Assembly: GCA_951406725.2 (NCBI GenBank)
Contig: OX597815.1
Location: forward strand, 134,354,001-134,418,000
Reading direction: 5' to 3'
DNA length: 64,000 bases
From: Octopus vulgaris
Taxonomy: Eukaryota
The translations under genes and the position numbers were made by a program. Below are positions 4,256 through 62,227 of this stretch, one piece after another. Position 1 is the stretch's first letter. Every line of letters begins with the position of its first letter. The notes below the pieces were generated by a model, which saw only the letters and a program-made list of their open reading frames with translations, searched no databases and was not told the origin of the DNA.

Positions 4256-4899
4256 ATGCATAAGACCACAAATTTGGGGACCAGATTTATTTGCTTAAAC
4301 TGACCCCAGTACTTGAATGGTACTTTATTTTCTAACCCGCCACCTCCACAGAAGGATAAAAGGTAATATTGAGCTTCATAGAATTTGAACTAAGCATGTA
4401 AGGAGCTGATATGTTGTTCAATTCTGCCAATCTAATCCTTTCTCACATAAAGACAAGGCCACAGATTTTGGAGGAAGAGGAGGTGTGAAGCTGATTTCAT
4501 TGACATCATTACATAATTACTGGAATGAGATGATGATTTGGCATGGCTGACTGCTTAGGTTGATGGTATGTTTTGGCGCTCGAGGCAAACATACACATGT
4601 GTGCAGAAATATACAAATACAGATAGAAAAAGTGAGTGTGAGTGTGTGTGTGTCTGAAAGACAGAGAGACAGAAAGAGAGAGAAACATTACAATTTACTA
4701 ATTGAACCTGACATGAACCCTTTCTCTCTCATACACATAAGGATAGACATGCCCAGAGAGAGAGAGAGAGGAAGAGAGAAAGAGAAGGGGAAGAGAACGA
4801 AAGAAACATTAAAACTTGATGTCAAATACATTAGCATTGAATCAGCAACATCCAATAGGCAATGCCAAAATGGCTGTGCCAAATTGTCATATCCCTTAC

Positions 4900-4997
4900 C
4901 TGGATTGTATCTGTCATTACAGTTGAGAAAACTACCATGTTTGCATCGAATATTTTTACCCCATCGGTCATTCACACATACTGTGTCTTTCACAGGA
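4900..4997 (-). CDS. FUCA: Alpha-L-fucosidase exon 5
   Basis: ttttag|T CCT..CCA G|gtaagg. Encodes [33 protein letters not shown], with the NDRWG motif. 98 nt, phase 2 to 1. Confidence 0.96.
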
Positions 4998-6189: not shown

Positions 6190-7050
6190 CCAATCTTGGT
6201 GTTGGAGAATATGGAAGCTGATTCATAAAACAAAGCTTGTAAATAAGATCTAAGGGCACATCACAAACACAGATATAAATGAGTTTTAATGCTGAATCAT
6301 ACTACTAAATATTCAACAACAAATGAAAGTAGCTGTTACCAACTATAATGGTTAGTGACTCTCATATATCCAAGGGTGTGAGGCCAAAGAGCTGGAGGTT
6401 GATGGATAGGGAGGTGAGAGAAGATGAAGGGGAAGACGGGGAGGAGGAGGTTGCAGAAGAAGGAGGGAGAGATGAGGAGGGAGGTGGGGGCAGGGAGACG
6501 TTGGGGGAGATAAGGACATGATGTGGTCTATGAGGATATCAATGGCCAGGAGAGCGGGTACAGAGGTGTAGAGGGAAACTACGTCTAAACTAAAAGGGTA
6601 TTTGCTAGTTTTAAGTATGGAAGGGTCAGGGTCAATATCTTTGAGTTTCATGAAGATTTTGTGGGAGCTGCTGATGTGTCCAGGGATTGTGTGTAGTAAG
6701 GGTTTGAGGAGTTTAGAGAGGAGCCAAGAAATCATATAGAAAGGACCATTAATTCCTGATACTAAGGGTCTGATTTTAAGCTTAGGTCTGGGTTTGAGGG
6801 TTTTTATTAAATAGTAGAAGGCTGGAAGGGTGGTGTTTTTAGATGTGTCGTTCAGTCTAGCCTTCTTAGAGAGATTCCTTTGGTGACAGATGTTGGCCCA
6901 GTTGGTATTGATGGTAGACTAAATTTGGTGAGGTATGATGTTGTGAACCTTTTCGTATAGTGTGGTGTCACTGAGGTTTTCAATAGCTTGTTTGTTGTAG
7001 GTGGGTTTCTCTATAATGCAGAATTCTTTTCCTTTGTCTGAAGGTAAGTA
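6190..7050 (-). mobile_element. Penelope-like element RT fragment (left arm)
   Basis: KIRPLVSGINGPFYMISWLLSKLLKPL...FSLDVVSLYTSVP is a PLE-type RT signature. Confidence 0.75.
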
Positions 7051-8110
7051 CATTACCTACCTTCATAAGAAAATACTAAATCACCTTCACGGAAGGCTCT
7101 CTCAACACATCCTTAATATCACTAATCTAAAAACTAAGCTAGCACAACAAACTGACAATCCAGACACTTCTCTACCATGCTTACACGACATGATAAACCA
7201 ATGCTATTACAATAGACTATTTCATGAGATAGAATGCCTTACAAGAAAGCTCCTCTCCAAACTCCTCAAGCCCTTAGTACACGCATTCCCCGGACACATC
7301 AGCATTTCCCACGAAATCTTCACAAGACTCAAAGATATCGACCACTCCATGCTTAAAAATAACAAATACCTATTAGTTTAGACGTAGTTTCCCTCTACAC
7401 CTCTGTTCCCACTCTCTCAGCCATTAATATCCTCAAAGATCACATCATGTCCTTATTTCCCTCCACATCTCCTTTCCCCCATCTCCCTCCTCATCTCTTC
7501 CTCCCTTCCCTGCAACCTCCTTCTCCCCATCTTCCCCTTCATTTTTTCTCACATCCCCATCCATCAACCTCCAGCTCTTCGGCCTCACACCCTCGGAAAT
7601 ATGAGAGTTACTAACCATTATGGTTGGTAACACCTACTTCTAACATAACGATGTGATTTACAAACAGACTTCTGGCCTACCTATGGGATCTAGCTGGCTA
7701 TCACGTACATGGATAAGCTAGAACACACAGCACTCTACACCTGTCACTCATGCATCTTCAGAGGACCTATACGAGATCATCTGTGGCAAATATGGCGCAT
7801 CCTACAAAGGAAGCACATCAAGAAAACTGCATATATGCATTAAGGAACACATGCAGGCAGACACTTTCGTGAAGAAACATCTATGGAAATGCCAGACCTG
7901 AGAATTCACAGTGCACATCAAGGTAACACAGTGGAATAGGAGCAACCTTAAAATCTCTGAGGCCATCCTCATGCACCAAAAGAAATACCTTTTTATAGCA
8001 ACACCTTTTTGCACATGTCCACTCCAAACATGCTCACACACACGCACATAGGCAACATTCGTTAATTTCTTGAAAATGGGGTCATAACCCTGAAATATTG
8101 AATACAAGGT
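7050..8110 (+). mobile_element. Penelope-like element RT and 3' fragment (right arm, inverted relative to 6190-7050)
   Basis: Homologous LLSKLLKPLVHAFPGHIS..DVVSLYTSVP, then YKQTSGLPMGS (PLE RT motif). Frameshifted. Confidence 0.75.
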
Positions 8111-8859: not shown

Positions 8860-9540
8860 GTCACCAGGACTAAGTAGTCAGTCTCCTCCTATTCATCATA
8901 GTTCCCCAAGCCATAACAGAGGAGTTGGCTACCCTTGGAAACTACTATATGTTGATGATCTCATTCTTATACCAGAATCTGTAGAAATTGGAAAAGAAAT
9001 TCCAGGTGTGGAAGCAAAGCCTGGAATCAAAAGGTCTTGATTTAACTAAGTAAAGTCCAAAGTTGTAGTTAGCAAGAAAACAGATAAGACTCTCTTCCTA
9101 CCAGGTAAAAGTCTCTGCTCAATATGTAGAAAGTATATTGGAAGGAATTCCATACAATGTACCCAGTGAAAGGTTAACAGAGAAAGTAGTCTTTATATGT
9201 GGCAGATGCACAGGAACAATAAACACTAAGAAAACAAGAATTAGATTTTCTCAAATGTTCTATTATCTAAGTGACCTAATTAGCAGTGAAATACAATGTT
9301 CTGAAAATATAGTTGTTAGAATGAGAACAATGGAAAAAGTTCAGAGAGCTATTATCTATGTTGGCCAAAAATTTCTCTGTGAGTGCGTAAAAGACAGATT
9401 ATATGATGCTTGTGTATGAACAGCTATGCTACATGGTAGTAAGATGTGGTACCTGAATACAGAGGACAAGTAAGGACAGGAGAGGAATGAAGCTAGTATG
9501 TTACACTGAATGTGCAATATCAGTGTGCATGTAGATGTCA
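8860..9540 (+). mobile_element. RTE-clade LINE RT C-terminal fragment
   Basis: Decayed GVxQG..LSPLLF..PWKLLYVDDL..; later RLYDACVxTAMLHGS..W (RTE-like). Confidence 0.7.
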
Positions 9541-15481: not shown

Positions 15482-17400
15482 TTAAAGATTAAATAAAATT
15501 TGTCTTAAATGGTTTCACTATATCTCCTAATTTTAAAGCATTTCAAATCTAGAACTTCCCTTCATCATCATTTTAACATCCACCAGTCCTTACTCGCAAG
15601 CGTCAGATGGAACTTGTTGAGTCAGATTTCTTACAGTTTGGTTCTATTGTTGTTGTCTAACCTTAAGTCAGTATTGACCAAACAGAACTTTGATTAAAGG
15701 TTTTCTATCCATGACCACCTCATCTTTTATATTTATGCATAATGTATTTATGACTAACTTATCCAACATGTCTCCAACCCTCACCTTTTTCTAAGTCAAT
15801 ATTTCCCCATGACCAGACATATTTTCACAGAAGATTGGAAACAAAGGACACTGCTTGCATGACAGTGACACTTATTTACAACTGTCATACAATGTTAAAG
15901 AAAGATGACAGTAACACACACACTTCAGCATGGCTGCAGTCAGATGACTGAAACAAGTAACAGAGTAATACACAACACACACACACACACACACAACAAA
16001 CTTCTTTCAGTTTCCAGCTATCAAATCCACCTACAAGGCTTTAGTTGGCCCAGGGTTATAATAGAAGACACTTGCCTAAAGTGCCATGCAGTGAGACTAA
16101 ACCTAAAACCATGTGGTTGGCAAGCAAACTTCTTTATAAACAAATATTAATTTTTTAAGTGAGCAGATGATAAATAATACCACTTATGCAAATGCGTTAA
16201 GCAATGGTCACTATAACTGCCTCCCCTATCCATCTCTATCTACCTTTCCTTAACCCCATCATTCTCTGCTAAATATTGTATCCTAAACATATCTCTTTCT
16301 CTCTTCACCTTTCCCTTCTGCTAACTTTTTAACCACGTAATAAGTATTCCTTTCCTACCCCACTGCATATCATTAACACTTCTCTTTCCCCACTTTTCTC
16401 TCATTCTTAGCCTCTACCTTCAGCTGACCATGAGACACATTTGGCCTAAGTGTACTATTTCTTTACTTCTCCCTCCCCTTCTCTCACTAAAGTATAACAG
16501 GTGAACAAACAAGCAGATTATTATATAGAAAAAAAAACATTCTAGCGGGGTTGTTGCCAGTGCCGCTGGACTGGCTCCTGTGCAGGTGGCACATAAAAAG
16601 CACCATTTGAGTGTGGCCGTTGCCAGTACCACCTAACTGGCCCTCGTGCAGGTGGCACGTAAAAGCATCCACTGCACTCTCGGAGTGGTTGGCATTAGGA
16701 AGGGCATCCAGCTGTAGAAACTCTGCCAGATCAGATTGGAGTCTGGTGCAGCCATCTGGTTCGCCAGACCTCAGTCAAATCGTCCAACCCATGCTAGCAT
16801 GGAAAGCGGACGTTAAACGACGATAATGATGATGATATAGATTCAACCTTTTGCCAAATTTTTGCAGGAAAGTGTTGCATATCAAACACTGATGACGAAT
16901 GACCAGGTCTACGTATTTATGCCACCTCTCAATAAAAAGTTACAGAGAATGATCTTCAACTCAAAAGAAATCATAATCATTAGGTATGGGACCTCAGAAC
17001 CAATAAAGACATCCTCCCTGATCAAATTCCCACCTGAATACTGAAGGAATAGTGTGTGGAACTGGCCATGCCCCTGTGATCCCTATTTCCCTTGTGCTTT
17101 ACTGGAGCTGCTTTTCCAAACCAATGGAAGATTGCCTCTATAACTCCTAAATATATGAGAGACTCTATATCTGATCTATTTCGTGATGTAGCCTATAGCC
17201 ACAAATGACTGTAAGGCTATAGGCTAAACAAGCAATTCATTTATAAAAATTCATTCAGCTTATGACCAAACATGTTATAACGTGATAGACTGTATACAGC
17301 AAGGAATGAAGCCAAATGATTTATATAGATTTTTTAAAGTGTACATTTACAACAGTAATAAGCAAGTGAGATTTGGAGTGCAGAAAAGAGAAAAAAATAC

Positions 17401-17762
17401 TTGGCTCCAGCAGCTTCAAATAAGTTTGCCCATTCTCTAGCATTGAAAAATTCCGTGGTAAATTTCGGCGCAAAATCTGCATAAGTAAAGTCAGGAGGAT
17501 AATTCTTGTTCATAAAATCAACATAATAAGGGTTTTTACTTCCTTTCCAGTACCACCAAAACCACTCGGAACCATAGCTCGGTACGGAGAAAACGCCCCA
17601 GTGAAGAAATATACCAAACTTCGCCTCGTCGTACCATGAAGGAATAATTCTTTTATCAAGAGATTCCCAGTTAGGTTGATATTCGGCATCAGTTTGTTGT
17701 AAAAGAAGAGAGAGTAGAAACAACAAATACAGCCCACACATCCTTGCCGCAGTCGCCATCAT
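17401..17762 (-). CDS. FUCA: Alpha-L-fucosidase (GH29) coding exon 1 (signal peptide and N-terminus)
   Basis: Encodes [81 protein letters not shown] donor at 17400-17399. 362 nt, ends in phase 2. Confidence 0.97.
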
Positions 17763-37720: not shown

Positions 37721-37887
37721 AATGATGATTTAACATTTATTTTCCATGCTGGCATGGGTTAGAGGTTTGACTGGAGCTGGTAAGCTGCATGAAGCACCAG
37801 TCTGTTTTGGTTTGGTTTCTATGGCTATAAGGGTAAGAACAAATACTTGTATGTGTGTATACAAGTATTTGTACAAAACAAATTATT

Positions 37888-38089
37888 GCAGCACGGATTT
37901 TTGTCAGTGAACAGGTCGCGGTCTTAAAGCCCCGAAAATATTTTGACAAATTAAACTTAAATGTTGAAGTGAATCGAACGGCTTTTGTGTGTTTCTTAAA
38001 TGGCTTACAAACACTTTCCACGCTGCAATTGATTTCGTTTCAGAACACGATCTCAGATCAAATCATTTGCTATGCAAGTACGTATCCGT
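37888..38089 (+). mobile_element. ~200-bp non-autonomous element carrying a hammerhead-like fold (copy 1, 11-bp TSD)
   Basis: Flanked by AACAAATTATT at 37877-37887 and 38090-38100. A closely similar inverted copy lies at 50726-50927. Confidence 0.8.
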
Positions 38090-38546
38090 AACAAATTATT
38101 TATATAAAACAAAACAATTTATTATATAAAATAAATTTAGTAGAATCAGGGGCAATGTTTCGTTTGTAGTAACATTGCCTGATTATCAGCTATTCTTGAT
38201 CTTGCTTTGGATTTAGTAGATTTCATTTTTGAGAATAGCTGCTCATATTTATATGTGCTCGAGTGACATTTTCTTCCTAGCAAAATCTACGATCAAGGGG
38301 AAATTTTCTCTAGGTATTTTCATTAAAAAATATCCAATTGTTTGGAAGTTATGAGGCAACAAAGTCTTGGAGTTGGGTGAGGTGGAGCACAAGTGGCGGT
38401 ATAACTAAATTAGAATATTTTGGAAAAAAAAACTCCTTATCAGGAGTTGTTTTTTTTTAACCTTTATTTTGGACAGAATTCTATTAAAAGTTAGTAATTA
38501 TCACTTTCAAAATATTGTACAATAATAGGAAATTCACGAAACTTAC

Positions 38547-41215: not shown

Positions 41216-41431
41216 TGTTATGTGTAGTTTGAGTTCTCATGGGATAGACAACCAATTGAAAACCATTGTTATTGTTACGTGTTTATTTACTTTTCATGAT
41301 ACACGGACACGACATTCAGCGTAGTAATACATTATATACTTTACACACAGTTGTACTGTTCACTAACAAATAGTGCCAAGAGTGGGGATGTAGTTTGGCA
41401 TACGCAAACACATAGATATGAACGTGTAACA
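41216..41431 (-). repeat. Gypsy 3' LTR (216 bp), with the polypurine tract AAGAAGGGA at 41440-41432
   Basis: Differs from the 5' LTR by about 3 substitutions and 1 indel (counted by eye). Confidence 0.95.
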
Positions 41432-41699
41432 TCCCTTCTTGAAAAAAAATAAAGGGGTCTTCTGGCAGTGAAGACAATTATGAGTAGTCTCCCTTGCTCT
41501 ATGTATTGTCAGCCTGAGGTGGCAATCCTACAGCAGAAGTCGTGAGATTATTCTGCGTCTGCTTTGTAGTCTAGCTGAATTAGATACTTCTCTTTTCATT
41601 TTCTTTTCTTTAACGGTATCGAACCGGTGGCAGAATATTCTTTCTCCATCTGGTGGATCTTGTGCTTCGCACCGGTGTCTGAGGTGTGTTGTTGGGCTG

Positions 41700-44293
41700 C
41701 TAATAGGTGGTTTGTGCACGTTGGGGTGATGATTCTGTGGGTGTTGTCACTAATGCAGCAGGTGTTGTACACGTTGTCCTCGACAGCTCTGGTGTTGGGC
41801 GGATGTGGGCCCTGTTGCGTCTCAGCTGCCTACCAGATTCCGTTTCTATTATATATGATCTTGGAGTTTCATCTCTACCGACAACCTGTGCTGGGATCCA
41901 TGTTTTAGTTATGGGAACTTGAGTATGCACATGTTGTCCTCCAAGTATCTCAGGTAAATATTGTGCATGTTTGTTGTAATACCTCTGTGATTGTTCTTGA
42001 GTGGCTGCTAGCTTTGCCCTTGTCTCTTCCTGGTCAATAGGAGGTTGGATCTTAGTTGGCAGAGTAGTTTTGTACTTCCTGCCATTTAGCAATTCTGCTG
42101 GGGATTTCATATCAGCTCTCAGTGGTGTCGCTCGTAGGGACAGAAGTGCCAGGTGTGGGTCTTCCTTAGTCTCTCGGCATTTGACTAATGTTCTCTTCAC
42201 TGTCTGCACCTGTCTTTCTATAAACCCATGGCCTTTGGGGTAGTGTGGAGATGAAGTTGTAATATTGAACCCATACTCATCGGCTAGCTTTTTGAATTCT
42301 TGTGATGTGAACTGGGTTCCATTGTCACATATGATCTGCTCTGGTATTCCTTGCTCTGCTAGGAGTCCTCGAGCCACTGTAGTGATTGTTTTGGCTGTCA
42401 GGTCTTTCACTTTTCTCACAAATGGAAATTTGGAGTAGTAGCAGGCCATTATTAAATACCATTCTTGGCCCTCTGTGAATAGATCTACTCCAATAGTTTG
42501 CCATGGCCTTCTTGGGATGTCACTAGATATCATTTCTTCCTTTTGTTGTGAGGTTCTGTACTTTTGACAGATGTGGCATGTAGAAACTATCTTTTCTATG
42601 TCTTTGTACATACCTACCCAATATACTGCTGACTTGGCTCGGAGCTTGCATTTCTCCATTCCGAGATGCCCTTGGTGGATCTTGTCAAGAATATCTTGTT
42701 GCATTGACTTGGATATAATTATTTGGGATCCAGCCATCAGGATTCCATTCTCCACTGATATATCACCATGGATGGCCCAATATTCACGAATCAGGGGTTG
42801 CACCTGATGTCTCTTTTCTGGCCACCCCTGAATCACCATCTGAGTAAGGAGCTGAAGTTCTTCATCTTTGCTGGTCTCCTCTTTGATTTCCGCTAGCTTT
42901 GTGGTTGTCACATTTACAATGTGGTGGACCTTTATGCTTAGTCCTTCCATCTCCTGTTTATCATGTGAGGATAGTCTGGAAAGAGCATCCGCCAATATCA
43001 TGTCTTTTCCTGGCTTGTACCTGATATCATAGTCATATGTTTGAAGCCTTAACAGTAATCTTTGCAGTCTGGCTGGTGCTTTCATGAGGTTTTTTCTATG
43101 TATTTGTTCTAGCGGGCGATGGTCTGTTTCTATATTGAAATCTCTGCCATACAGGTATGTATGGAACTTTTCGCATCCATATACTACTGCCAGGAGTTCC
43201 CTTTCAATATTCGCGTACCTTGTCTCTGTGGGTGAGAGAGCTTTCGAGGCATATGCAATAGGTTTACCTTCCTGTATCAGTGCTGCGCCAACTCCTCTCA
43301 TAGAAACATCGACTTGGAGTGTTACTGGTTTGCGTCTGTCATAGTATTGCAGAGTTGTCTCCTTACTGATGAGCTTTTTGATTGCGTTGAAATCCTGTGT
43401 GTGTGAAGCACACCAATCAAACTCTACGTCATCTTTGTTTAGTTCTCGGAGATTTGCAGTGTGATCGGCCAGCTTGGGTATGAAGGCTCCCATGTAGTTG
43501 ATGAGTCCCAGGAAGCTCCTGAGTTCCTTCCTGTCTTTAGGATCTTTAATGTCTCTGATGGCTTCCACTTTAGCGGGGTCTGGCTTAACTCCCTCTGCAG
43601 AGTATATAATTCCAAAGAATTTGCACTCCTTTTCCTTTATTATACACTTTCTGCATTGAGTTTGATGCCTGCTTGTCGGGTTTTCTCCATAGCTTCATGT
43701 AAATTGAAGTCATGTGTAGTCTCATCCTTGCCATGCACTTGGATGTCATCTGCTATTCCAATTGCTCCCTTGCAGCCTTGGTATGTCTCATCTATTTTGT
43801 GCTGGAAAACATCTTGGCTCACCTTCAATCCAAATGGGAGTCGGTTGAACCGATATCTGCCAAATGGTGTGTTGGAGGTAGTGAGCATGGATGACTCTTT
43901 GTCTATTTTTATATTCCAGTACCCATTGCTGGCATCCAGTTTACTGAATATTTTGGATCCAGCCAATGATGGTGTGATTTCTTCAAGGGTTGGAAATGGA
44001 TGGTACTCCCTTTTTAATGCCTTGTTCAAGTCCCTTGGGTCGAGGCATATCCGTAGGGTACCATTGGGTTTTTCCTTGATCACAATTGAATTTACCCTGT
44101 CTGTTGGTCGTGTCACTTTGGTGATTATTTCCTTTTTGTCCAACTCTGTCTTCAGCTTCTCTTTTAGTTCTAGAGGGATGCGGCGAGGTGGGTGAACAAT
44201 TGGTTTGATATTGGGGTCGACTGTTATATGATATCGACATTTCACAAAGTACCCGACTGTATCGTCAAAGCATTCAGGGTACATGCTTATCAT
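41700..44293 (-). pseudogene. Gypsy pol (RT 43640-44293; RNase H and integrase 41700-43568), frameshifted, protease absent
   Basis: RT motifs LDASNGYW, RLPFGL, IADDI. RNase H motifs LQVDVS, ERELLA, TDHRPL. Integrase motifs HQGH..CHIC, GVDLF, CDNGTQF, GFIER. Confidence 0.92.
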
Positions 44294-44350
44294 TTCCTCT
44301 TCTATTTCTGCTCCTCTTTGAAAATTGGGGCTTGTATCTCTGGGATTTTG

Positions 44351-45085
44351 TTACCCTACACATTTTTCCCAGTGGTTAAGTTTTCCACATGTTTTGCAGT
44401 GTGTACCGAATGCAGGACATTTTTCCCGGTTATTAAATTCATGCTCTGTATCACAGTACTGGCATGTTCTTTGTTTGTGGGTATGTGTCCTGTGCCTAGA
44501 TACAGCATCTACACTGCTACCTAGTGAGCTTGTTTGTAAGCTAAGTGAGGCCATCTGTTTTGTTGTGGCTTCGAATGCTCTTGCAGTGTCTACTGCTTCT
44601 ACCAACTGGAGAGCGTCCTTACCTATTAGTGATTTTTGTACTTCTTTGTGGGCACACCCCCATATTATTTGGTCTACAATTCTCTCCTCCCTGTCTTTGA
44701 ATTTGCATTTCTCTGCAACATTTTTCAGTCTTGACAGGAAATTGTCAATTGTTTCTTGTGGGTCTTGTTTCAGGCCCTGGAATTCGTATCTGTGAATTCT
44801 ATGGTTCGACCTGGGCTCTAGGTGCCTTTCAAATTTCTCAAGAAGTGTGTCTGGGTTATTGCAGTCCGATTCTGACATATCCCAGCTATTGAATTGGTCT
44901 ATTCCTTTATTACCTGACCATAAAAGGATATAGCTTACCTTCTCATCGTCAGTTGTGCCTTTCAGGAAACTTTTGAAAGCTAGTTGGGTTTTCTGTTTAA
45001 ACTTTTTAGATGCTTCCAAAATATCATCGGAGTCCCAATTCATAATCGGATGTAGATTCCGCTGTACGGCGACGGGGGTCGCCAT
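44351..45085 (-). CDS. Gypsy gag with two CCHC-type zinc knuckles
   Basis: QDPQETIDNFLSRL capsid motif. C-terminal CQYCDTEH..CPAFGTHCKTCGKLNHWEKC. Confidence 0.85.
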   Translation of the reverse strand: MATPVAVQRNLHPIMNWDSDDILEASKKFKQKTQLAFKSFLKGTTDDEKVSYILLWSGNKGIDQFNSWDMSESDCNNPDTLLEKFERHLEPRSNHRIHRYEFQGLKQDPQETIDNFLSRLKNVAEKCKFKDREERIVDQIIWGCAHKEVQKSLIGKDALQLVEAVDTARAFEATTKQMASLSLQTSSLGSSVDAVSRHRTHTHKQRTCQYCDTEHEFNNREKCPAFGTHCKTCGKLNHWEKCVG

Positions 45086-45196
45086 CTTGGATCGTCGTGT
45101 TTGTTATCCTAAGACGAAGCGATGTTTTGTTTGTTAATTTCCTGGTTCGTTGCGTTTCTGATTTGTTGTAAAGGCACAGTTTCCGTTTAATTATTT

Positions 45197-45209
45197 ACCG
45201 CTGCCACCA
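45197..45209 (-). promoter_or_regulatory. Primer-binding site complementary to the tRNA-Leu 3' end
   Basis: TGGTGGCAGCGGT directly inside the 5' LTR. It matches the ACCGCTGCCACCA end of eukaryotic tRNA-Leu(AAG/UAG). Confidence 0.8.
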
Positions 45210-45426
45210 TGTTATGTGTAGTTTGGGTTCTCATGGGATAGACAACCAATTGAAAACCATTGTTATTGTTACGTATTTATTTACTTTTCATGATACACGG
45301 ACACGACATTCAGCGTAGTAATACATTATATACTTTACACACAGTTGTACTGTTCACTAACAAAATAGTGCCAAGAGTGGGGATGTAGTTTGGCATACGC
45401 AAACACATAGATATGAATGTGTAACA
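45210..45426 (-). repeat. Gypsy 5' LTR (217 bp)
   Basis: Direct repeat of 41216-41431, followed on the minus strand by the PBS. Confidence 0.95.
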
Positions 45427-45639
45427 TAACAAACTACGTTCCAAACACATGGTCCTGGGTTCAGTCCCACTGTGTGGTGACTTGGCATGTGTCTTCTGCT
45501 GTAGCCTCAGACCAACAAAAGCCTTCTCAGTGGATTTTGTACATATATACAGGCATACATACATATATATACATGCATACGTATATATTCGGCATAAACA
45601 CTCTACCACTACAACTAATAACTGTTGGGAACACTTTCA

Positions 45640-48474
45640 AACCTGCCTTACATTCGAACCGGAATCTCAACGCCCGAGTTTTCCATCTGAAGTTAATCTC
45701 TCTCTCATGGAGCTCATACAAAAAGGGCAAGTCTTTGGGCCCATACAATGTGACATCTACACAATCGAGTGGAAAAAAAGGGGCCTTCCACATGCTCATA
45801 TCCTGCTTTGGCTCTCAGCGAAGATCAATTCCAATGACATCGACAACATAATCTCTGCAGAGCTTCCTGATTCAGCTTTAGACAAAGAACTATACGAAAT
45901 AGTTAAAGCAAACATGGTACATGGTCCATGTGGGCGTGGATTCAACATAAACTCACCATGCTTGAAGGACAGCATATGTTCAAAAAGATTTCCAAGGAGG
46001 TTCCTACAAGAAACTCAGACAGGTGCTGATGGGTATCCATCATACAGACGTAGAAAACCAGAAGACGGAGGTTTCACAGCAACTATCGGACAGCACAATA
46101 TTGATAATATATGGATTGTTCCATACTGCCCACTCCTGTCAAAGACTTTCAATGACCACATCAGCGTTGAGTTTTGCAACTCCAATAAATCCATCAAGTA
46201 CGTTTGCAAATATGTAAACAAGGGTTCTGACGCTGCAATGTTTGGACGGTACATAAGTAGCAACGAGGCTTTCTGGCGCATCTTTGGCTTTCCAATTCAA
46301 CAACGACACCGCGCCATTCAACAGCTTGCAGTGCACCTGGAAAATGGTCAAAGAGTGTACTTCACCGATGCTAATGCTTCTCTGTTGGCAGAGGAACCAA
46401 GGGATAGCACACTCACTGCCTTCTTCAAGCTTTGTCAAGTGGATCCATTCGCTCAAACCTTGCTGTTTCCACAGATTCCATCGTACTACACTTGGAATGG
46501 AAAAAAATGGGCCCCACGGAAATCAGGTCAAAATGTTCATGGATACCCTGGCATTAAGTTTCACACTTGCCTTGGGCGAGTATACACAGTGCATCCCACT
46601 CAACAAGAGTGCTTCTACCTTCGTCTACTGCATGAGATCAGAGGGCCAACGTCTTTCCAGGCCCTAAAAACCGTTCATGGACATGTCTGCACAACATACA
46701 GAGAAGCCTGCTATCGACAAGGTCTGTTAGAAGATGGTGCACAATGGGGTGCAACTTTAGGAGAGGCTGCTTTATCACAATCACCTAAAGGTCTCAGGGC
46801 ACTATTTGCAGTATTACTACAGGTATGCGAACTGTGTGATCCGGTCACTCTATGGCTCAAATATAGAGACAACGTGGCTGAAGACCTTCAGCGCCAAGCT
46901 CAACTGCTCTATCCTGACATGGAGAGTATCAGCAATGAAATCTATAACAAAACACTCATTGACATTGAAGACAGAATTGCTAAACTGGGTAGAAATGAAT
47001 TGTCGACGTATGGCCTGCCACAAGCATTCAGGTCAGGGTTAAATAGCCTTCCCACTGCTGTCATTCGTGAAACAACCTACGACACTCAAGCGCTTTCAAA
47101 GTACATTGTTGAAAATGAGCCTAAATTACTTCCGGACCAGCTGCAGGCCTACAGAACTATTCTTAACAATGTACGCCAACGCGAGGGACGAATCTTCTTC
47201 CTCGATGCTCCTGGAGGGACAGGAAAAACATTTATTACAAAGCTTCTCCTTGCAGAAGTTAGGCAGCATCAGGACATTGCAGTAGCTGTAGCCTCCTCTG
47301 GCATTGCAGCTACTTTGTTACCCGGTGACAGGACAGCACACTCAACTTTTAAACTCCCTCTCAACTTAGCAGCATCCGAAATTCCTTCATGCAATATTAA
47401 CAAAAGCTCAGATCAGGGACAAGTACTTAAAATATGTCATCTAATTGTCTGGGATGAGTGCACTATGACTCACAAAGGAGCTTTGGAAGCATTAGATAGA
47501 GCCCTGAAAGACATCCGAGACTGTCAGGCTCCAATGGGAGGTGTAACGCTTCTGTTGTCAGGTGATTTCAAGCAAACTCTTCCTGTCATTCCGAAAGACA
47601 CTAGAGCAGATGAAGTCCAAGCATGCCTGTGGCATCATGTTACAATCCTCAGTCTCACCACTAACATGAGAGCTCAGCTACACGGCGACAAAATGTCCAC
47701 AAAGTTTGCACAGGACATTTTGACACTTGGTGAAGGCAAGATGCCTCTCGATGCTGCAGGACAAATGGAAGTGTGGTCATTTTCCTCTGTTGTTAATTCT
47801 GTAGATGGCCTCAAAAACAAAGTGTTTCCCAACTTCACACAAAACTACCAAAATCACAATTGACTGTGTGAAAGAGCAATATTAGCTCCAAAAACCGTTG
47901 CTGTTAACAAAATTAATCAACAGCTAATGCATTCTCTTCCCGGCACTATACACACTTACAAGTCTGTTGATACAATTCCAGATATAAATGAATTTCTGAA
48001 CTATCCTCCTGAATTTCTCAATTCACTGGAGCCTCCTGGACTACATCCACACATATTAGCACTTAAAGTTGGAACTCCTGTAATGCTAGTCCGCAATCTG
48101 GAACCACCAAGACTTTGCAATGGAACACGACTGGTGATAAAGAAAATGATGTCACACGTTATCGAGGCGATCATTCTTTCTGGATGTGGAAAAGGTGATG
48201 ACGTCTTTATTCCAAGAATTCCTCTTACTCCATCAGGAGCAGAAATTCCATTTACATTCAGAAGAATGCAATTCTCCCTTCGTGTCAGCTTTGCCATGTC
48301 CATTAACAAATATCAGGGTCAAACCCTCTCTGTAGCTGGTTTTCTCTTGTAAGAGCACTGCTTCTCGTATGGGCAACTGTATGTTGGCTAATCAAGAGTA
48401 GGAACCAAAAGAAACCTTTTTGTATATGCTCCACAAGGAAAAACAAGGAACATTGTTTACAACGAGGTGTTATA
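45640..48474 (+). pseudogene. Helitron RepHel (HUH Rep plus PIF1 helicase), N-terminally truncated, with stops
   Basis: Rep motifs IEWKKRGLPHAHILL (HUH) and KYVCKYVNKG (Y2). SF1B/PIF1 motifs DAPGGTGKT, VASSGIAATLL, WDECTM, GDFKQTLPV, FAMSINK.QGQT. Premature stops at 47863, 48352 and later. Confidence 0.92.
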
Positions 48475-50176: not shown

Positions 50177-50575
50177 TGTAGTGACGCTACTGTGTAAATT
50201 TCAGCGCACATGGCGCAGAATTGGATTACCTCATGCGCATGCGCAGGAACTGCAACCTGAAAGCCTGACCGCTGAATCGGTCTTATCTGGCAGAGCAGCG
50301 CTAGCGGTCGGACGTGGCTTGACTTTCTCTCAGGGAACAACCCTACGCACAGAGAACCTCACCCCAACGAAACGGGAACGAACACGGAATCATCTTGACT
50401 CGCACGAGAGAACATTGTAACCTGTCCTGTGGATTCGGCTGCCGGTTTCCCCACAAGAAATACATGTGTACATGTTTTGCCTGTAAACCGCAGAATAAAC
50501 CACCACTTACTGTTATTGAAGACAGTCTGACTTTGTTTCTGTTTCTTCTAGTATATTTTACGTCAACTGACCACG
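50177..50575 (+). repeat. CpG-rich candidate solo LTR
   Basis: Starts TGTAGTG and ends GACCACG. Contains a GCGCATGCGC palindrome and an AATAAA near 50494. No clear TSD. Confidence 0.35.
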
Positions 50576-50725
50576 TGTATTTGTTTACATATGATCGTCG
50601 ATTTCTGTAAAAAAACTTTTATTTTTTTTACATATGGTGTTGCGGGGAAATGGGAGAACCGTAACATCGCCAGTCTGGCAAAGTACAGTTTCGTTTTTCA
50701 TTTGACACCCAACAATTTCCAGGTA

Positions 50726-50927
50726 TTACGGAGATGTACTTGCATAGCAAGTGATTTGATCTGAGATCGTGTGCTGAAACGAAAACAATTGCAGCGTAGA
50801 AGGTGTTTGTAAGCCATTTAAGAAACACAAAAGCCGTTCCATTCACTTCAACATTTAAGTTTAATTTGTCAAAATATTTTCGTCGCTTTAAGACCGCGAC
50901 CTGTTCACTGACAAAAATCCGTGCTGC
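50726..50927 (-). mobile_element. ~200-bp hammerhead-bearing element, copy 2
   Basis: Reverse complement of 37888-38089 with few differences. Stem II is intact in this copy. Confidence 0.8.
50865..50915 (-). ncRNA. Minimal type I hammerhead-like ribozyme with a G3:C8 core variant
   Basis: TTTGTCA-GTGAACA-G-GTCGC ggtcttaaa GCGAC-GAA-AATATT-T-TGACAAA: 7-bp stem I, 5-bp stem II, palindromic stem III. Confidence 0.6.
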
Positions 50928-51265
50928 ATCTGAGAAAGTAACAGTTCGTTCGTTATATACATGTATGTGTGTATGTATGTATGCACGCATGTGACAGATC
51001 ACAGACGAAGATAACACTAATTGTCTCGTATGAAATGGTTCACTGTGTTAACTTATGAGGCTCCTGTCAACGACCAAGTCTCTTCAATGTAAACTTATAG
51101 TAACCAAATTTCCCCCACGTAGAAATAAAACATTTCTATGAAGTAAAGGGTTACAGGCGATCTTTCGTTACAAGAACACTACAAACCACTTGTATTTGTT
51201 TACATATGATCGTCGATTTCCGTAAAAAACTTTTATTTTTTTACATATGGGGTTGCGGGGAAATG

Positions 51266-53565
51266 GGATCTTTTGAAGTAATGAAAGCGAAAGAGACTAA
51301 GAGAAAGCGATTGTATGAGGAGGGAAGTTCTTTTGAAGTTACTGTGCATGGGAAGCATTGATGTACATGTGTGTGTGTGTGTGTGTGTTTGATGGGGTGT
51401 GCGAGATAGAAAGTATGGTGTGTAAGTGAAGTGCTTTTGTTAGTGTGTGTGAAGAGAGAGAGATAACTGAAATTTTTTACTCAGGTTTTGTAGTGCGTGT
51501 GTATGTGTGTGTGTGTGTGTGTATGTATGTATCTATGTATGTGTGTGTATGTATCTATGTATGTGTGTGTATGTATCTATGTATGTATGTATGGCCGATT
51601 CAGTGTTTACATTATTTCGAGTTAAAACGAAAGATTACCTTTGCCTGTTTATGTAACGGTCTGCTATGTAGAAAATAATGAGGTTGACTCAATGGAATAA
51701 TGACAGTGATCGAAGATATAGACAATTTTTTTATATTTAATCGTTATATATGCCTTGTCGACTGCTATTGTGCAGCCTTAAATTTCTACTTGTCCTGTTT
51801 TCACCATTATGGCATCATGCAAGGGACTGATACAGTAATGTCCGTTGATGTGACGATGGTGAAATGGTAAGAAAAGGACGGAAGAGTTATAAAATGAGGA
51901 GGAGATATATCCTTCTCATGAGAAAAGAGTTGCATGCAAAGGAAAAAAAAAAGTTAATAGTGTATAGATGTGCACAGAAACTGGGGGCAAGTATGCATAT
52001 ATGCATGTGTAAACATTGTGTTGTGCAGCAAAAGGAACGAACAGTACAAAATATGTAACGAAAAGTGACAAAATCTGATTGGTAATGTCCTGTGTGAAAA
52101 GTCTATGCTGAAAAGTGAGAAAAGGTTAGTTCTCTTGGTTGGGTAGCTGTCCTAAGTGTTGCATTTATGTATGGCAACTGTTTCCCTCGTGGATCTGTGC
52201 ATCGGGTTGCAGTACATGTGGAATGTAATTGGTGTGTGTCCATTGAGTCGGTGACTTCATTCCTTTCGTGTTGTGTTGGGCGTGTGACGATGGAACTGAA
52301 AACTATGCGTCGTGAAAGTTCGTGTCCTATAATTCTTGTTGATGCGACTGGCACGTCCACATCTATTCCATGGTGTTTGTGTGGATTGAGGCATCGTTGG
52401 GATCCACAAAGTTGACACTGTGGTTCACAGTCAAATGGTTGGGCAGGCTTTTTTACGCTCTCCATGAATCTCTGATAATCTTAGTTCCTAGCAATACATG
52501 GCGGATAATAATAGGCAACAATGTTGCTGCACTTCTTTTCTGCACAGGAACTAAGATACATCTCAGACTCTCACGCTCAACCATACCCAAAACCCAGTGA
52601 CCTTCTCGATAAGTACCACGATGATATTTCCTGTGCATGAACTTGGATTCATCGATGCCAGAGAATCTCTACAACAACATCTTCTCCTCCAAGTTGCACA
52701 GGGTGGTCAAAACACCACATAGCACAAACATCGCGGAAGTAATTGTACCAGTTGACAATTGCCTCTGGTCCAATTCCAACTTCACCCATCACAACACTCT
52801 GTTTACATTCAATTATCGCCCAGTAATACATCAACCCGAGGAGACAAGTCAATGGTAGGTGTGAACCCGCGAAAAACGAGTCTCGCCTAATGCTACGAAA
52901 TTGCTTGCAAACAGTACACCTCCACATTTTCCCATCGGATACTGTATTGCGTGATGCAAGGTACATCCGCCCATTACAACATTCCGATGAATTGTGGATC
53001 AATCCCACAGATGCCAGGAATTGGATTGTTGAATCCGCGTTACTCATGGCATGAATGTCTCGCAGATGGTGAGATCTTTGAGTTATGTCATCAACGGAAA
53101 GGACAGATTCAACAATCCTATATCGTCCAGCCATAGTGGGATCTTATGGAAGAGTATAATGATGTAATTAATAGTAATTAAGAAAATGTACAGGAGAGTC
53201 TGTTGCCAGATATGTGTGTGTGCTTGTGAGTCTGTGTTTGTATGCACAGGCGTGTGTGTGCAAAGTTTTGTTTGTGCTTGTGTCTGTACAGGTGCGTGTG
53301 TGCAAAACGAAAATAAAATAAAGATTTTACGTTCCAAAAGTCTCTTCGTTCCAAATGTCTCTTCGTTCTGCAGTAGTAAATGTGGAGAAAGACAGACTGA
53401 AATTGTTAGAGAACTGCGTTCGAGCTAGTTGGAAGTCAAAGAGTGTGGGACATTGTCTGATATCCTAGCAGCCCTTTCTTTACTAAGTCATGAAATGGCT
53501 TGTTCTGTTGATGACAAGTGACTAACTTACTTTCGCTTGGTATGTGTTTGCTTATATTAAGATCC
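51266..53565 (-). mobile_element. Merlin (ISXO2/IS1595-like) DNA transposon with a disrupted transposase at about 52300-53134; boundaries tentative
   Basis: WRCTVC..SIRRDSFF zinc ribbon; VVVEI/DESKF, WVLGMVER, RSAATLLPII, DSWRA, HLTVNHSVNFVDP..HTNTMES. Short inverted ends GGATCTT/AAGATCC. Confidence 0.8.
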
Positions 53566-57138: not shown

Positions 57139-60100
57139 TCTCTCTCTATATAAAAGGCAGTTTATATGTCTGTGTGTCTGTCAGGTTGTACCCTCGTCCT
57201 GACCGCGGCTTTCAACCAATTCTGATGAAACTTGACACACACATAGCTTAATGTCATAATGTCATAATGTCATAATTCAAAACTAACGCAGCTTTTGAAA
57301 AGTTCCCCCAGTTCTGAAAAAAATCGATAAATTCGACATGGGGTCGAGAATCTAAGCTTATCATATGTTTTCGCAACTTGCAATCGATTTTCACCAAAAT
57401 CATGGTGAAGCTTAATGTTACCCTAAGGAATTTAATTCTGACGTTAGTTTTCCATGCAGTACCTTACCATCAGAAAAAATCGATAAACTCATGCCATTTT
57501 GGGAAATCGCGTTCAAATTCAAGACGATATATTTTCGACAATATCTTTAACAAATTGGCAGGAAGTTTTTTGAAATTCACAGCGAGCATCATGTCTGCTC
57601 CAAGGAGCTATATGGCCCTTTTTATTCCAATAGGATACGTTATTACTGGAAGAAATCGGTTAATTACATCATATGTGGCACACGTAGCAAACTGATTTGT
57701 GTATTAAACACAAACCACAGACGGTCTAGGGGACGCAACTCGACCTTCTTTAACTCTCTTACTCCCCCTAATAACTATCAAACAACTATCGATGATTCAA
57801 TCCACAGGAGGAAATCTAGACTTAATCTTCAAGATATCCCACATACAAACCAAAGATTACATCGAAACCTCCAGACTAACCTAAGTTTTGGTGAACCAAT
57901 TCCTACCAGGAAGAACTAACCTCCGAGACTTTACCACCTACACAGCCACTTCAAGCAGTCAACGAGACAAAACATGACCAGACAACATAACCTTGGCATA
58001 CTTCTGCTAATCGCTGCTGCAGCCGCAAGTTATTCGAATACTTTTTTTTTGTTTAAACTTACTTTATAACTACCACCCCAAACGTTTTACCTTAAATTTT
58101 TGACGTACCCTAAGGGTCGTCGCACGCTACTTGCAAACTCTTGGTTTATTATAAGCCGCCTTTGTCGTGTGCACTAAAAATACCTTTTCCATTGTTTGTT
58201 CAGTTTGGTCACTTTTCGCTTTTTCGTTGTTGTCACTCACATTGCTGCCCGCTTTTTTGCCGTTTTTGTACATTTTTATACATTTTGGGATACTTACCCC
58301 ACGTGTTCCTTTTTATTACACCTTTGCCAAACACATTGCTATCCACCAAAATGCCACCCAAGAAGAGAAGGACCCTCCTCAGCCCTCGGACGGCCAAGGC
58401 ATCGGCTACTAGGGCTAGAAGGGCACGCGAGACCCACAAGGAAACTGCCTTGCGCCTCTCGCAAAAAGCTTCCCGTTCTGCCGCTGCTCAGGCATCTGAA
58501 ACTACTAGCGACCGTTCTACCCGACTTGCAAGGGCCGCAGCGTACAGATTTTCCCTCCGCTCAAGGTTGACGAAAGAGTAACCGTCCAGCCAAAACATGC
58601 GGGCTTCTTCCTGTGCTTCCATCCACAGAGCTCACGAGAACCCCGAACAAGGGCCATTCGGAATGCGGCTTACGCCGCTAGCACCGCCAGGACGCGATCT
58701 GTCGAAACCCCACAGCAGAGGAGAACTCGCCAAGCTGCTGACGCCGCAAACACAGCCATGGCCCGATCTGCCGAAACACCTCAACAGAAGAGAGCTCGCC
58801 GAGCTGCTGACGCCGCAAACACAGCCATGGCCCGATCTGCCGAAACTCCAGACCAACGAACTATCCGGACATCCAGAGATGCCATTAACACTGCTTCTGC
58901 TAGGGCTTCAGAGAGTGCTGAGGCGAGAGCTGAAAGGCTTTCAAGGGATGCCACTGCTACCGCTGTCGCACACGCATCTCAATCTGCTGAGGCACGGCGC
59001 ACTCGACTTGAGAGTATCAACCAATGTCGGGATATCATTCGTGGTGTACGTTCCCCTGCCCCCGCTTTCTGGTCGTCACTAGCATTCAACTACGACGCCA
59101 CAATTAACTTCTTCTCTCACGCATATATCGCGGTCCTCCCGTGAAGGTGGAGGGTAGAATGCATGGCTTGCCGATGTTGCGAGGGTCATTTTCTTGTTGC
59201 AAGCCGTCACGGAGATGAATGTAGGAGTCGGAGCGAAGTTTGGTCTGATTAAGTTTAATGTATAGCAGCCTTTCCGATTCCATTTTGGCGGCCATGTCGA
59301 CGGCGAACTGGTTGAATAGCTGACGACAATGGGGCAATAAGTTGAACTCACCCTCCCTGACCATCTGAGTTCTGCAGCTCCATCAGGTCAATACAATATG
59401 TCTGCAAATATATCAATAAGGGCAGGATGCTGCCATGTTCAGCATCCAGAGGACCACCAGTCGCGACGAAGTGTCCAACTACTTGGCAGGCCGGTACCTC
59501 AGCAGCAACGAAGCGTTTTGGCGCATTTACGGCTTTCCGCTCCATCAGAGACATCTGACTGTGGTGCAGCTTGCTGTACACTTGGAAAATGGACAGCGGA
59601 TTTACTTCATAGAACAAACTGCTGCGCAGGTAGCCACCAACCCTAAAGACACAACGTTGACCGGTTTCTTCAAATTATGCCAACGTGATGACTTCGCTCG
59701 AACGCTTTTGCACCCCCAGGTCCTATCGTACTTCGTGTGGTCTACAACACCTGGCTTCGACGGAAATCCGGCCAAAACGTCGAAGGCTTCCCAGGCGTCA
59801 AGTTTGACTCCTGCCTGGGTCGAGTTTACAACATCCCGCCAAACCAGCAAGAATGCTTCTACCTCCGTCTCCTTCTACATGAGGTCACTGGTCCAACAGG
59901 TTTCGGCAATATACGCACCGTCAATGGAATTCTGTGCGACACCTTCAGGGAAGCATGTATGAGACTTGGCCTTCTAGAGGATGACTCCCAGTGGGACGCC
60001 ACTATGGCAGAGGGCGCTTTACTGCAAGCGTCTTCGGCCCTACGACATCTTTTCGCAATCCTTCTTCAAAAATGTCAGCTTAGTGACCCACTAAGTCTCT

Positions 60101-62227
60101 GGATGAAATACAGGGATGACATGTCGCAGGACTTCTTACGTACGGCTCAGCAACACTGCCCTTCCGTCGAGATCACGTTCACCAACTTCATTTATAATTT
60201 CACGCTTATTTAACTCGAAGACGCTGTCATCGATATGGGTGGCTCTGCTTTAACGGAATACGGCCTTCCACCACCCACACGTGAACACGCCAATGTTATG
60301 TCTGCTGAATTGTTACGCGAAACTTCCTACTGCACTGAGGAACTGCACCAGTACGTCCAAGATAATGAACCACGATTGCTTCCAGACCAGCGCATAGCCT
60401 ACAACACCATCGTAGACTCTGTCAGACAGCAACGTGGGGTGATTTACTTCCTTGACACACCTGGCGGCACTGGCAAACCCTTCGTCACGAAACTAATTCT
60501 GGTGGAGGTCAGGCGCAACACGGACATTGCCCTGGCTGTAGCTTCCTCTGGTATCGTGGCCACGTTGCTTCCGGGTGGCAGAACCGCCCACTCTGCCTTC
60601 AGACTCCCGCTTGATCTGGCAAAGTCCGAGTCACCTATCTGCAACATCACCAAGAACTCAGAACAGGCCGACATTCTGCGCAGATGCAAACTCATTGTAT
60701 GGGACGAGTGCACTGTGGCGCACAAAGGCGCCCTTCAGGCACTGGACAGGTCCCTGCAAGACATCAGAGACTCTATGGCCCCCATGGGAGGATTGACTTT
60801 ACTTCTTTCAGGAGACTTCAGGCAGACTCTGCCTGTTATTCCTAAAGGAACCCGTGGCGATGCCGTGCGCGCGTGCCTTAAGTTGTCAGCTCTTTGGGCA
60901 CATGTGCGGCCCTTGCGCCTCCAATCTAACATGCGCGCGCAGTTGATTGGTGACAGCAGATCCGCTGCATTCTCCAGGGACCTTTTATCGCTCGGTGAAA
61001 ATAGGATGCCGGCTGATGCGGATGGCTGCGTTCAATTGGACTCACTTTGCACCACTGTCGACACTCCTGCTAGCCTCCGAGACGCTGTTTTCCACGACCT
61101 ACAAAACAATTTACGCGACCTAAAATGGCTGGCAGGCAGAGCTATTCTCGCACCCAAAAATACAACTGTCAACTCCATCAATATCCAGCTACTTGAAGCT
61201 ATTCCTGGTGATGTCCACGTCTACAAATCTATAGATAGGACAGCAGACCCCGCCGAGCTTGCCGATTATCCTATTTAATTCCTGAATTCACTTGAACCGC
61301 CAGGCTTGCCGCCACACATCCTGAAGTTAAAAGTCGGTGCGCCCATTATGCTCATCAGGAATTTGGTTCCACCTAAACAGTGCAACGGCACACATCTGGT
61401 TGTGAAACATTTGGCACCACATTTAATAACGGCCACAATACTTACCGGTTGTGGGAAGGGAGAGGACGTCTTCATTCCACACATGCACCTTCAACCGTCG
61501 AGCGCTGACCTACCAATCCACTTCAGGTGTTCTCAGTTTCTTGTTAAACTCTGCTTCGCAATGTCCATCAATAAATCCCAAGGCCAAACGCTACAAGTCG
61601 CTGGGTTACATTTGGGTGAACAGTGCTTCGCCCACGGTCAACTCTACGTGGGCTGTTCACGCGTTGGGAGACGCAATGATGTTTTCATGTTTTCGCCCAA
61701 AGGGACAGCTAGGAACGTCATATACACAGAAGTATTGGAGTGAAGAGAAGGCATTGCAACCTACACATGCGCCTTCGTTCCCTAGAGGGAAAGGACTAGA
61801 TCGGGATTAGTCGTTGCCTACTAGAGGCTCCCGAGCCCCCTTTCGCTAGACTTAAGTTAGGATTAGGTAGGGCTTAGCTGTGGTCCGAACCCAACTTGGG
61901 TTCGGGGGGGGGGGCAGTGTCAAAAGGGCTGGCATGTGCAACCTTATCACCTCTGCCAGTCAAACTCCCAACCCATGCGTTCCTGTCGCGACACTGATCC
62001 AGCAGAACTGGGTTGAGTGTGCTAAACAAAACCAGAAAATGCACTTTGACTGTCATAGATTTTTTTCATGCATGCAAGGGAATGGTGCCTTGAATGCCTT
62101 AATGCCTTTTAGGCTTCATTTTACAAAATAACGGTTCAATGAGTACAAAAAAGGGTAAAAAGGTAAAAGGCACTGCTTATCGACAAAGTTTCTTACATAC
62201 CCGGGCAACGCCGGGCTATGCTGCTAG
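57139..62227 (+). mobile_element. Helitron 2
   Basis: A|TCTCTCTCTATATAAAAGGCAG at the 5' end. 3' hairpin CCCGGGCAACGCCGGG, then CTAG|T at 62224-62227. RepHel remnants inside. Confidence 0.85.
58351..61743 (+). pseudogene. Helitron RepHel with N-terminal 23-aa STPR-like repeats, an internal inversion and frameshifts
   Basis: MPPKKRR start, 69-bp repeats at 58703/58772/58841, [53 protein letters not shown]. Segment 59112-59365 is reversed. Confidence 0.9.

Follow-up and report, generated by a model that had tools for sequence, protein, structure and literature searches.

The window analyzed here is a stretch of 64,000 nucleotides of Octopus vulgaris DNA (assembly GCA_951406725.2, contig OX597815.1, positions 134,354,001 to 134,418,000 of the forward strand), and it holds two copies of a short dispersed repeat, one of which carries an intact hammerhead motif with an unusual pair in its core. 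The rest of the window is a mixed neighborhood: the likely first coding exon of an alpha-L-fucosidase gene (17334-17762, minus strand; PF01120, E 3e-41), with the two repeat copies about 20 and 33 kb upstream of it; a Gypsy-like LTR element (41216-45427, minus strand) with 218-bp LTRs that are 98% identical and with gag/pol frames; two stretches (45425-48352 and 58114-61743, plus strand) that we take, from their motifs, to be Helitron-like Rep/helicase remnants; and, at 6327-7880, decayed Penelope-like RT/endonuclease fragments of a distant family, in inverted arrangement (86% between arms). The features of the two repeat copies are as follows, the stems, core, and target-site duplications being read directly off the letters.

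50726..50991, minus strand: copy 1, the 5'-truncated 3' end of a Penelope-like element (about 60 nt of upstream 3' UTR, then the pLTR and the tail)
50953..50959, minus strand: TATA-like box TATATAA, a putative promoter element 23 nt above the probable start, with similar spacing in the full-length copy L190
50927..50932, minus strand: initiator-like TCAGAT, the probable transcription start being its A at 50930
50865..50915, minus strand: minimal type I hammerhead motif with G3:C8, recognized from sequence, fold, and homology to the C3-G8 motifs of a sister family
50915-50909 / 50871-50865, minus strand: stem I
50908-50902, minus strand: hammerhead core GTGAACA (G3 = 50908, C8 = 50903)
50901, minus strand: extra G after the core
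50900-50896 / 50886-50882, minus strand: stem II
50878-50873, minus strand: palindromic AATATT, preceded by GAA and followed by U17 (50872)
between 50872 and 50871, minus strand: hammerhead cut predicted from the motif
50726..50817, minus strand: first ~30 codons of an RT-endonuclease ORF, with the ATG at 50817 as its probable start
50726..50790, minus strand: tail, about 60 nt between two fixed 3' ends, with probable RT start sites near 50788 and 50726
37888..38089, plus strand: copy 2, a solo pLTR plus tail (hammerhead at 37900-37950, G3:C8 kept, stem II decayed)
37877..37887, plus strand: left 11-bp target-site duplication
38090..38100, plus strand: right 11-bp target-site duplication

What is this motif, what carries it around the genome, where did its odd core come from, and does it cut? 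A sequence-only reading of the same stretch had described a hammerhead on the minus strand of copy 1, and every part that it listed is there. The minimum-free-energy fold of the 50865-50915 motif consists of stems I and II (z = -2.35; 5 of 200 shuffles were equally good), and the site is the only one in the 64 kb that passes a descriptor allowing any Watson-Crick pair at 3:8, a descriptor that, with stems equally long, found nothing in 30 shuffled windows. A Watson-Crick 3:8 pair, stems I and II, a palindromic helix III, and an extra nucleotide after position 9 are all present; the literal consensus CUGANGA..GAAA..UH is broken at positions 3 and 8 only, the remaining core letters fitting, so that a CUGANGA search misses the motif, as had been foreseen. 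An Rfam scan likewise gave no hammerhead family at E <= 1, its matches being microsatellite artefacts. The motif belongs with the minimal type I hammerheads of Penelope elements, and its compensatory G3:C8 core is genuine. In the fold, G3 is able to pair with U17, lengthening stem I into a possible inactive trap, and the best cofold of two molecules pairs stems I and II between them without a shared helix III, a result that is silent on dimer activity.

The dispersed character of the repeat stands, and its size does not quite: copy 1 runs past the ~200-bp unit that had been delimited and extends upstream to 50991, into the 3' UTR of its parent, matching the pLTR region of the full-length copy L190 at 90% identity over 272 nt. 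Copy 2 is 94% identical and flanked by the 11-bp direct repeat, as claimed, and the 3' arm of its stem II has decayed to GCCCC, which leaves a single intact motif in the window, that of copy 1. We considered and rejected two extensions of the element: the ~370 nt above copy 1, where 51154-50991 derives from the interior of an unrelated repeat, and an 86-bp direct repeat (50570-50655 / 51185-51268) that belongs to another repeat. The 164-nt piece at 50991-51154 (minus strand), which abuts the 5' end of copy 1, comes from the inside of another young repeat; it is 98% identical to other copies of that repeat, of which some form a tandem array on contig C18, and it possibly records a template jump.

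Across the 2.8-Gb genome, an exact 20-mer over the hammerhead core has 6,323 matches (0 in the control) and 7,640 when the seven core letters are left free, from which it follows that GTGAACA is the family state; both arms of inverted insertions enter these counts. Exact 20-mers from the tail and from just upstream of the repeat have 3,286 and 602 matches. A probe for the RT interior yields 90 candidates genome-wide, and short copies thus exceed RT-bearing ones about 70-fold. Some copies of the element (L155, L156, L497-L501) sit within multi-kilobase or ~700-bp local tandem duplications.

The repeat, present in thousands of copies, is the pLTR and tail of an autonomous octopus Penelope-like element of about 4.4 kb. 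When 30 loci found by the upstream 20-mer were followed, 4 crossed a microsatellite-rich UTR of ~950 nt into the end of an ORF carrying a CxxxCxxC linker and a GIY-YIG domain (PF01541, 24.5 bits; cut-off 22.6), and in long copies an RT with GGAIG and RYVDD motifs precedes the GIY-YIG, one locus (L163) having both within an open stretch of 997 residues. A Pfam scan of the parent protein gave no RVT_1 match; its Atlas neighbors carry RVT_1, HTH_animal, and GIY-YIG. Two copies, L190 and L189, show the full layout of pLTR with hammerhead, ORF, 3' UTR, and second pLTR (in L190, the direct pLTRs lie at 4705-4925 and 8966-9182, and L189 is built likewise), and in both the ORF begins inside the pLTR and its frame continues into the RT. 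By tblastn, the ORF start in copy 1 matches the N-terminal part of the L190 protein at 81% over 32 aa (E 2e-11). The proposal of a separate, non-coding, retrozyme-like SINE therefore does not hold, since the repeat contains the start of its parent's ORF and, in long copies, joins RT/GIY-YIG coding sequence directly; nor are the local Penelope elements the mobilizer, the remnants at ~6.5-7.9 kb in the window sharing no more than 24-34% identity with the parent protein (E 0.4-0.8).

With its single ORF of RT plus C-terminal GIY-YIG, its pLTRs overlapping the ORF start, its tail, and its inverted 5' copies (the last two optional in such elements), the parent has the makeup of an EN+ Penelope-like element. 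Its linker reads CQSNCAVC and is followed by C..C..H..H; a CX2-5CxxC linker before GIY-YIG, with CCHH, is what defines Neptune/Nematis in PMC8557442. This points to the Neptune/Nematis type, an assignment made from the linker, the RT tree holding no named reference PLEs.

How did the core come to be G3-C8? The letters themselves are well kept: among 36 copies that span the motif and were picked by their tail, without regard to the core, G3 is found in 35 and C8 in 33, and core positions differ in 11 of 396 cells vs 265 of 4,152 downstream. A sister family, 54% identical to the parent in amino acids and supported as sister at 100/99 (in an RT tree that used one best segment per locus and dropped segments below 250 aa), has its hammerhead at the same pLTR site above the ORF start, with CTGAAGA or CTGATGA as its core and matching stems. 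Older copies of the sister read GTCA-CTGAAGA-G-GTCGC...GTGAC-GAA...T-TGACAAA and the octopus G3-C8 family reads GTCA-GTGAACA-G-GTCGC...GCGAC-GAA...T-TGACAAA; in the sister copy L222, the 12 core positions differ from that family at 3 and 8 exactly, with Watson-Crick pairing restored. Of 21 loci scanned in metagenome contigs as outgroups, 5 carry C3-G8 and 1 carries U3-A8; the other 15 hold no motif that passes the descriptor, in several cases because the contig ends.

Fifty copies picked by stem II alone tell a similar story: 36 are of sister type, all with G8 (31 C3, 4 T3, 1 G3), and the remaining 14, old and decayed, have C8 in 12, G3 in 8, both in 7, and C3-G8 in none, 5 of the 14 being tied to the G3-C8 family by downstream sequence at z >= 3. 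The older forms are changed at N7, in loop II, and in helix III (4 of 34 loci gave no parse), which means that G3-C8 outlasted much change nearby. The covariation that had been called for is also seen, in that 8 of 15 pairs change on both sides and 4 of 500 shuffles did as well, a figure that, coming from 11 pattern-selected and related natural copies, is not a probability. In other words, with a homologous C3-G8 motif in the sister and C3-G8 in the outgroups, G3-C8 is a derived natural double swap, a single evolutionary event whose product was kept across several subfamilies.

The octopus genome and the metagenome relatives offer further hammerheads beside these. A very young sister Penelope family (L192-L221, e.g., L196), its copies ~99% identical, has a hammerhead core changed to A9C and an ORF of ~1,310 codons that is intact in many copies; the ORF bears a long insert rich in asparagine, like those of rotifer Penelopes. 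At least two more high-copy octopus families (L229-L241) bear canonical C3-G8 minimal hammerheads, often in inverted pairs, and a pattern search has 2,144 matches genome-wide vs 370 in the control. Among the metagenome relatives, apparent core variants follow the ORF in several: U3-A8 in L248, a possible A6C in L242, and a possible G12A in L249 and L250.

The ends of the copies tell us how they were made. Every one of 30 copies selected with the hammerhead 20-mer has its 3' end at one of two fixed sites (14 near position 143, 16 near 203). Of 70 copies selected by their tail, 24 have a 5' end lying at -5..+5 relative to the element start and only 3 reach further upstream; an inverted arm is present in 39, and (TA)n follows in 26. 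These 5' ends pile up 23 nt below the TATA-like box, a TATA-initiator pair in a pLTR having been noted before (PMC3846280). The base just above AGATG, at -4, is G in 16 of 25 junction copies and in 0 of 30 long copies, which all have C or T; genome-wide, the first 100 of 1,381 non-C matches gave 66 G, 27 T, and 7 A, and 9 of the 11 T cases fetched were long copies of the youngest subfamily. The extra G occurs in all three loop-II subfamilies, and it often matches a G of the target or of the inverted arm, so that it is best called enriched and not always untemplated. In L1, an untemplated 5' G has been ascribed to copying of the cap (PMC9341517); in the literature passages searched, no cap-derived G is described for Penelope elements.

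Fixed 3' sites, a sharp 5' end, and an added G together make it likely that the extra G is the signature of a copied cap and that the majority of short copies derive, by internal priming, from RNA that was capped and uncleaved; we infer that most represent in full, as cDNA, the leading 145 or 205 nt of the capped transcript. The predicted cut lies 59 nt below the start, and 49 of the 70 tail-picked copies cross it intact, which says that the template RNA had been left uncut by the hammerhead.

The course of events we picture is as follows. Pol II would initiate at the A of TCAGAT, 23 nt below the TATA-like box of the pLTR; the RT/GIY-YIG protein, to judge from the biochemistry of PAc (the Poseidon element of Anolis carolinensis), would nick AT-rich DNA and begin reverse transcription within the start of the ORF, ~145 or 205 nt from the RNA 5' end. 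Copying as far as that end would then leave solo pLTRs with two fixed 3' ends and one sharp 5' end, the pattern that the genome displays, together with the added G, many inverted 5' parts, TSDs of varying length, and insertion into (TA)n, and priming in the 3' pLTR of full-length RNA would give the much rarer long copies. The hammerhead in this transcript, a C3-G8 descendant swapped to G3-C8, is predicted to cleave the smaller part of the transcripts, probably in dimer form or assisted by the protein, and its cleavage would strip the mRNA of its cap or trim tandem transcripts to unit length; the short copies would need none of it. Taken whole, this account (the pLTR and tail of an autonomous PLE, short copies self-primed from uncut capped RNA, and a G3-C8 core that likely cuts slowly) seems to us probable.

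Does the hammerhead cut at all? An engineered C3G/G8C swap partly rescues a Penelope hammerhead (PMC11167929; see also PMC8495972), and in the octopus family G3 is accompanied by U17 in 36 of 36 copies, which avoids a G3-C17 pair (cf. PMC3884650). If cut RNAs were sometimes copied, 5' junctions should lie exactly at the predicted cut, and 11 of 30 sampled from 133 matches do, for an estimated ~49 copies (95% interval 27-75), compared with ~12, 21, 6, and 11 copies at control positions 52, 58, 65, and 77. The excess is modest, its interval overlapping those of some controls; for 5 of the 11 junctions the assignment is ambiguous, stem I being self-complementary to the inverted arm, and the automatic classifier, whose lower count is the one used, missed 2 junctions visible by eye and scored 4 at the cut as near it. 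On this showing, we lean toward an octopus G3-C8 hammerhead that is still active, slowly.

The strongest competing idea accepts the same Penelope origin and holds that the hammerhead is dead or nearly so, kept as a folded handle (for protein binding, for example) or by inertia. The 49 of 70 copies that read through the cut site favor it, as does the young sister subfamily, where A9C is fixed in 53 of 53 motifs, core drift being evidently tolerated in an active family. So do published observations: insertion by PAc in vitro is unaffected by hammerhead mutants and no RNA ends were found at its cut site (PMC11167929, in the part available), and metazoan minimal hammerheads cleave poorly (PMC4209133). 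A dead handle sits less easily with a difference between L222 and the G3-C8 family that falls at core positions 3 and 8 exactly (by our estimate, ~1 in 200 by chance), with the persistence of G3 and C8 while N7, loop II, and stem III changed, and with the excess of 5' ends at the predicted cut, weak as it is. We think a dead handle somewhat unlikely.

What might a slow hammerhead be for? A cut in the 5' pLTR would decap the ORF and one in the 3' pLTR would sever the ORF from its RT start sites, so a role as a brake on mobility or in the processing of tandem transcripts is likely. A bolder proposal is that an active natural G3-C8 has been kept through a long radiation of octopus Penelope elements and that the genome logs both capped, uncut transcripts (most copies, with the added G) and ribozyme-cut ones (a few per cent, beginning at the scissile bond). 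We offer this tentatively, and with some doubt; if true, the frequency with which Penelope ribozymes fire in the germ line could be read from the genome.

Could the short form instead be a self-sustaining non-autonomous SINE or retrozyme, which regains a TATA-like box on landing in (TA)n, is transcribed, and is mobilized in trans, a modified version of the earlier proposal? The ~70-fold excess of short copies, the sharp 5' boundary, the retained RT start sites, the many copies in (TA)n, and the derivation of vertebrate retrozymes from pLTRs (bioRxiv 10.64898/2026.07.22.740005) would all suit it. However, all three loop-II subfamilies are also found with the upstream UTR, the solo form lacks the TATA box, and internal priming alone accounts for the excess. 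The copy ends lie away from the ribozyme site, unlike those of a retrozyme monomer, and tandem arrays are all but absent: head-to-tail copies were seen in 1 of 60 loci, a local duplication that takes in flank. Neither tandem units nor a non-coding unit without an autonomous parent, the marks of a retrozyme, are found in the octopus family, and a self-sustaining short form is improbable.

Very improbable, too, is a reading of the sharp 5' boundary as a 3' splice site and not a capped start. The boundary does resemble an acceptor (branch-point-like CTAAC, pyrimidines, CAG), and a Drosophila virilis Penelope intron that ends at helix I is a precedent (PMC4209133), but the junction copies keep the AG and share one G above it without a common upstream exon, the TATA-like box stands at the right distance, and (a weak point) assembled contigs of four runs with four organism labels, guessed to be RNA, show no splice joint to the boundary. 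That the repeat is a TIR-type MITE or a chance hairpin, as the inverted arms of many insertions might suggest, has next to no chance, given inverted-arm breakpoints and TSD lengths that vary (neither fixed terminal inverted repeats nor a fixed-length TSD being found), ragged 5' against fixed 3' ends, and long copies that encode RT and GIY-YIG; the variable TSDs expected of a dispersed, retrotransposed family are what the copies show.

Internal priming on capped RNA, with a derived and probably slow hammerhead, is therefore the reading that we carry forward. What is new here is an octopus family, apparently of Neptune/Nematis type, whose minimal hammerhead has G3-C8 by nature and whose copies keep a clear record of internal priming; that pLTRs can hold minimal hammerheads, and that U3-A8 occurs naturally, was already published (PMC4209133, PMC3088659). 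The texts and supplements searched hold only engineered G3-C8 hammerheads, and a natural one may yet stand in print elsewhere. If the octopus motif cleaves, it adds a third 3:8 combination to the natural repertoire, and CUGANGA surveys undercount ribozymes, there being more than 6,000 motif matches from one family in one genome. Genomic support for internal priming on capped, uncut RNA, demonstrated mainly in vitro so far, comes from the G added at the 5' end and the pair of fixed 3' sites, which also explain the origin of solo pLTRs. The data also bear on the question of what Penelope hammerheads do, and C3-G8, G3-C8, and A9C sister families within one genome make a comparison set for a single assay.

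How, finally, does the octopus element compare with what is known? Like the EN+ PLEs of Neptune/Nematis type (Arkhipova 2006, via PMC8557442), it has a single ORF of RT, linker, and C-terminal GIY-YIG with CCHH, pLTRs that overlap the ORF start, an optional tail, a hammerhead in the pLTR, inverted 5' copies, and (TA)n targets; it differs in a tail of ~60 nt (vs 30-40) and in solo pLTRs that outnumber RT-bearing copies ~70-fold. Non-LTR retrozymes (PMC7229834; bioRxiv 10.64898/2026.07.22.740005) are similarly short, hammerhead-bearing, and pLTR-related, but they come as tandem, non-coding units, with type I ribozymes of canonical sequence and with circular RNAs, whereas the octopus repeat is dispersed, not tandem, and has ORF codons and a full-length parent. 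The minimal hammerheads of metazoan PLEs (Cervera and De la Pena 2014, PMC4209133) share with it the extra nucleotide between 9 and 10.1, G10.1-C11.1, a short palindromic helix III, and mostly solitary copies; the 56 representative motifs given there, none from a cephalopod, have C3 in 53, U3 in 3, and G3 in none, in contrast to the G3-C8 of the octopus core. Natural U3-A8 hammerheads (PMC3088659; Cercyon of Schistosoma mansoni, PMC4209133) show that the 3:8 pair covaries in nature, as in the octopus, although U3-A8 takes two transitions by way of a tolerable wobble and G3-C8 takes two transversions through a mismatched intermediate. PAc (Frangieh et al. 2024, PMC11167929) is alike in that its tail is delimited by two RT start sites within the start of the ORF, its hammerhead overlaps the 5' region, and unprocessed RNA is the main template, as it probably is in the octopus. 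The 5' added G is not met in the available part of the PAc account, and G3-C8, which in PAc was an engineered partial rescue, is in the octopus the wild-type state.
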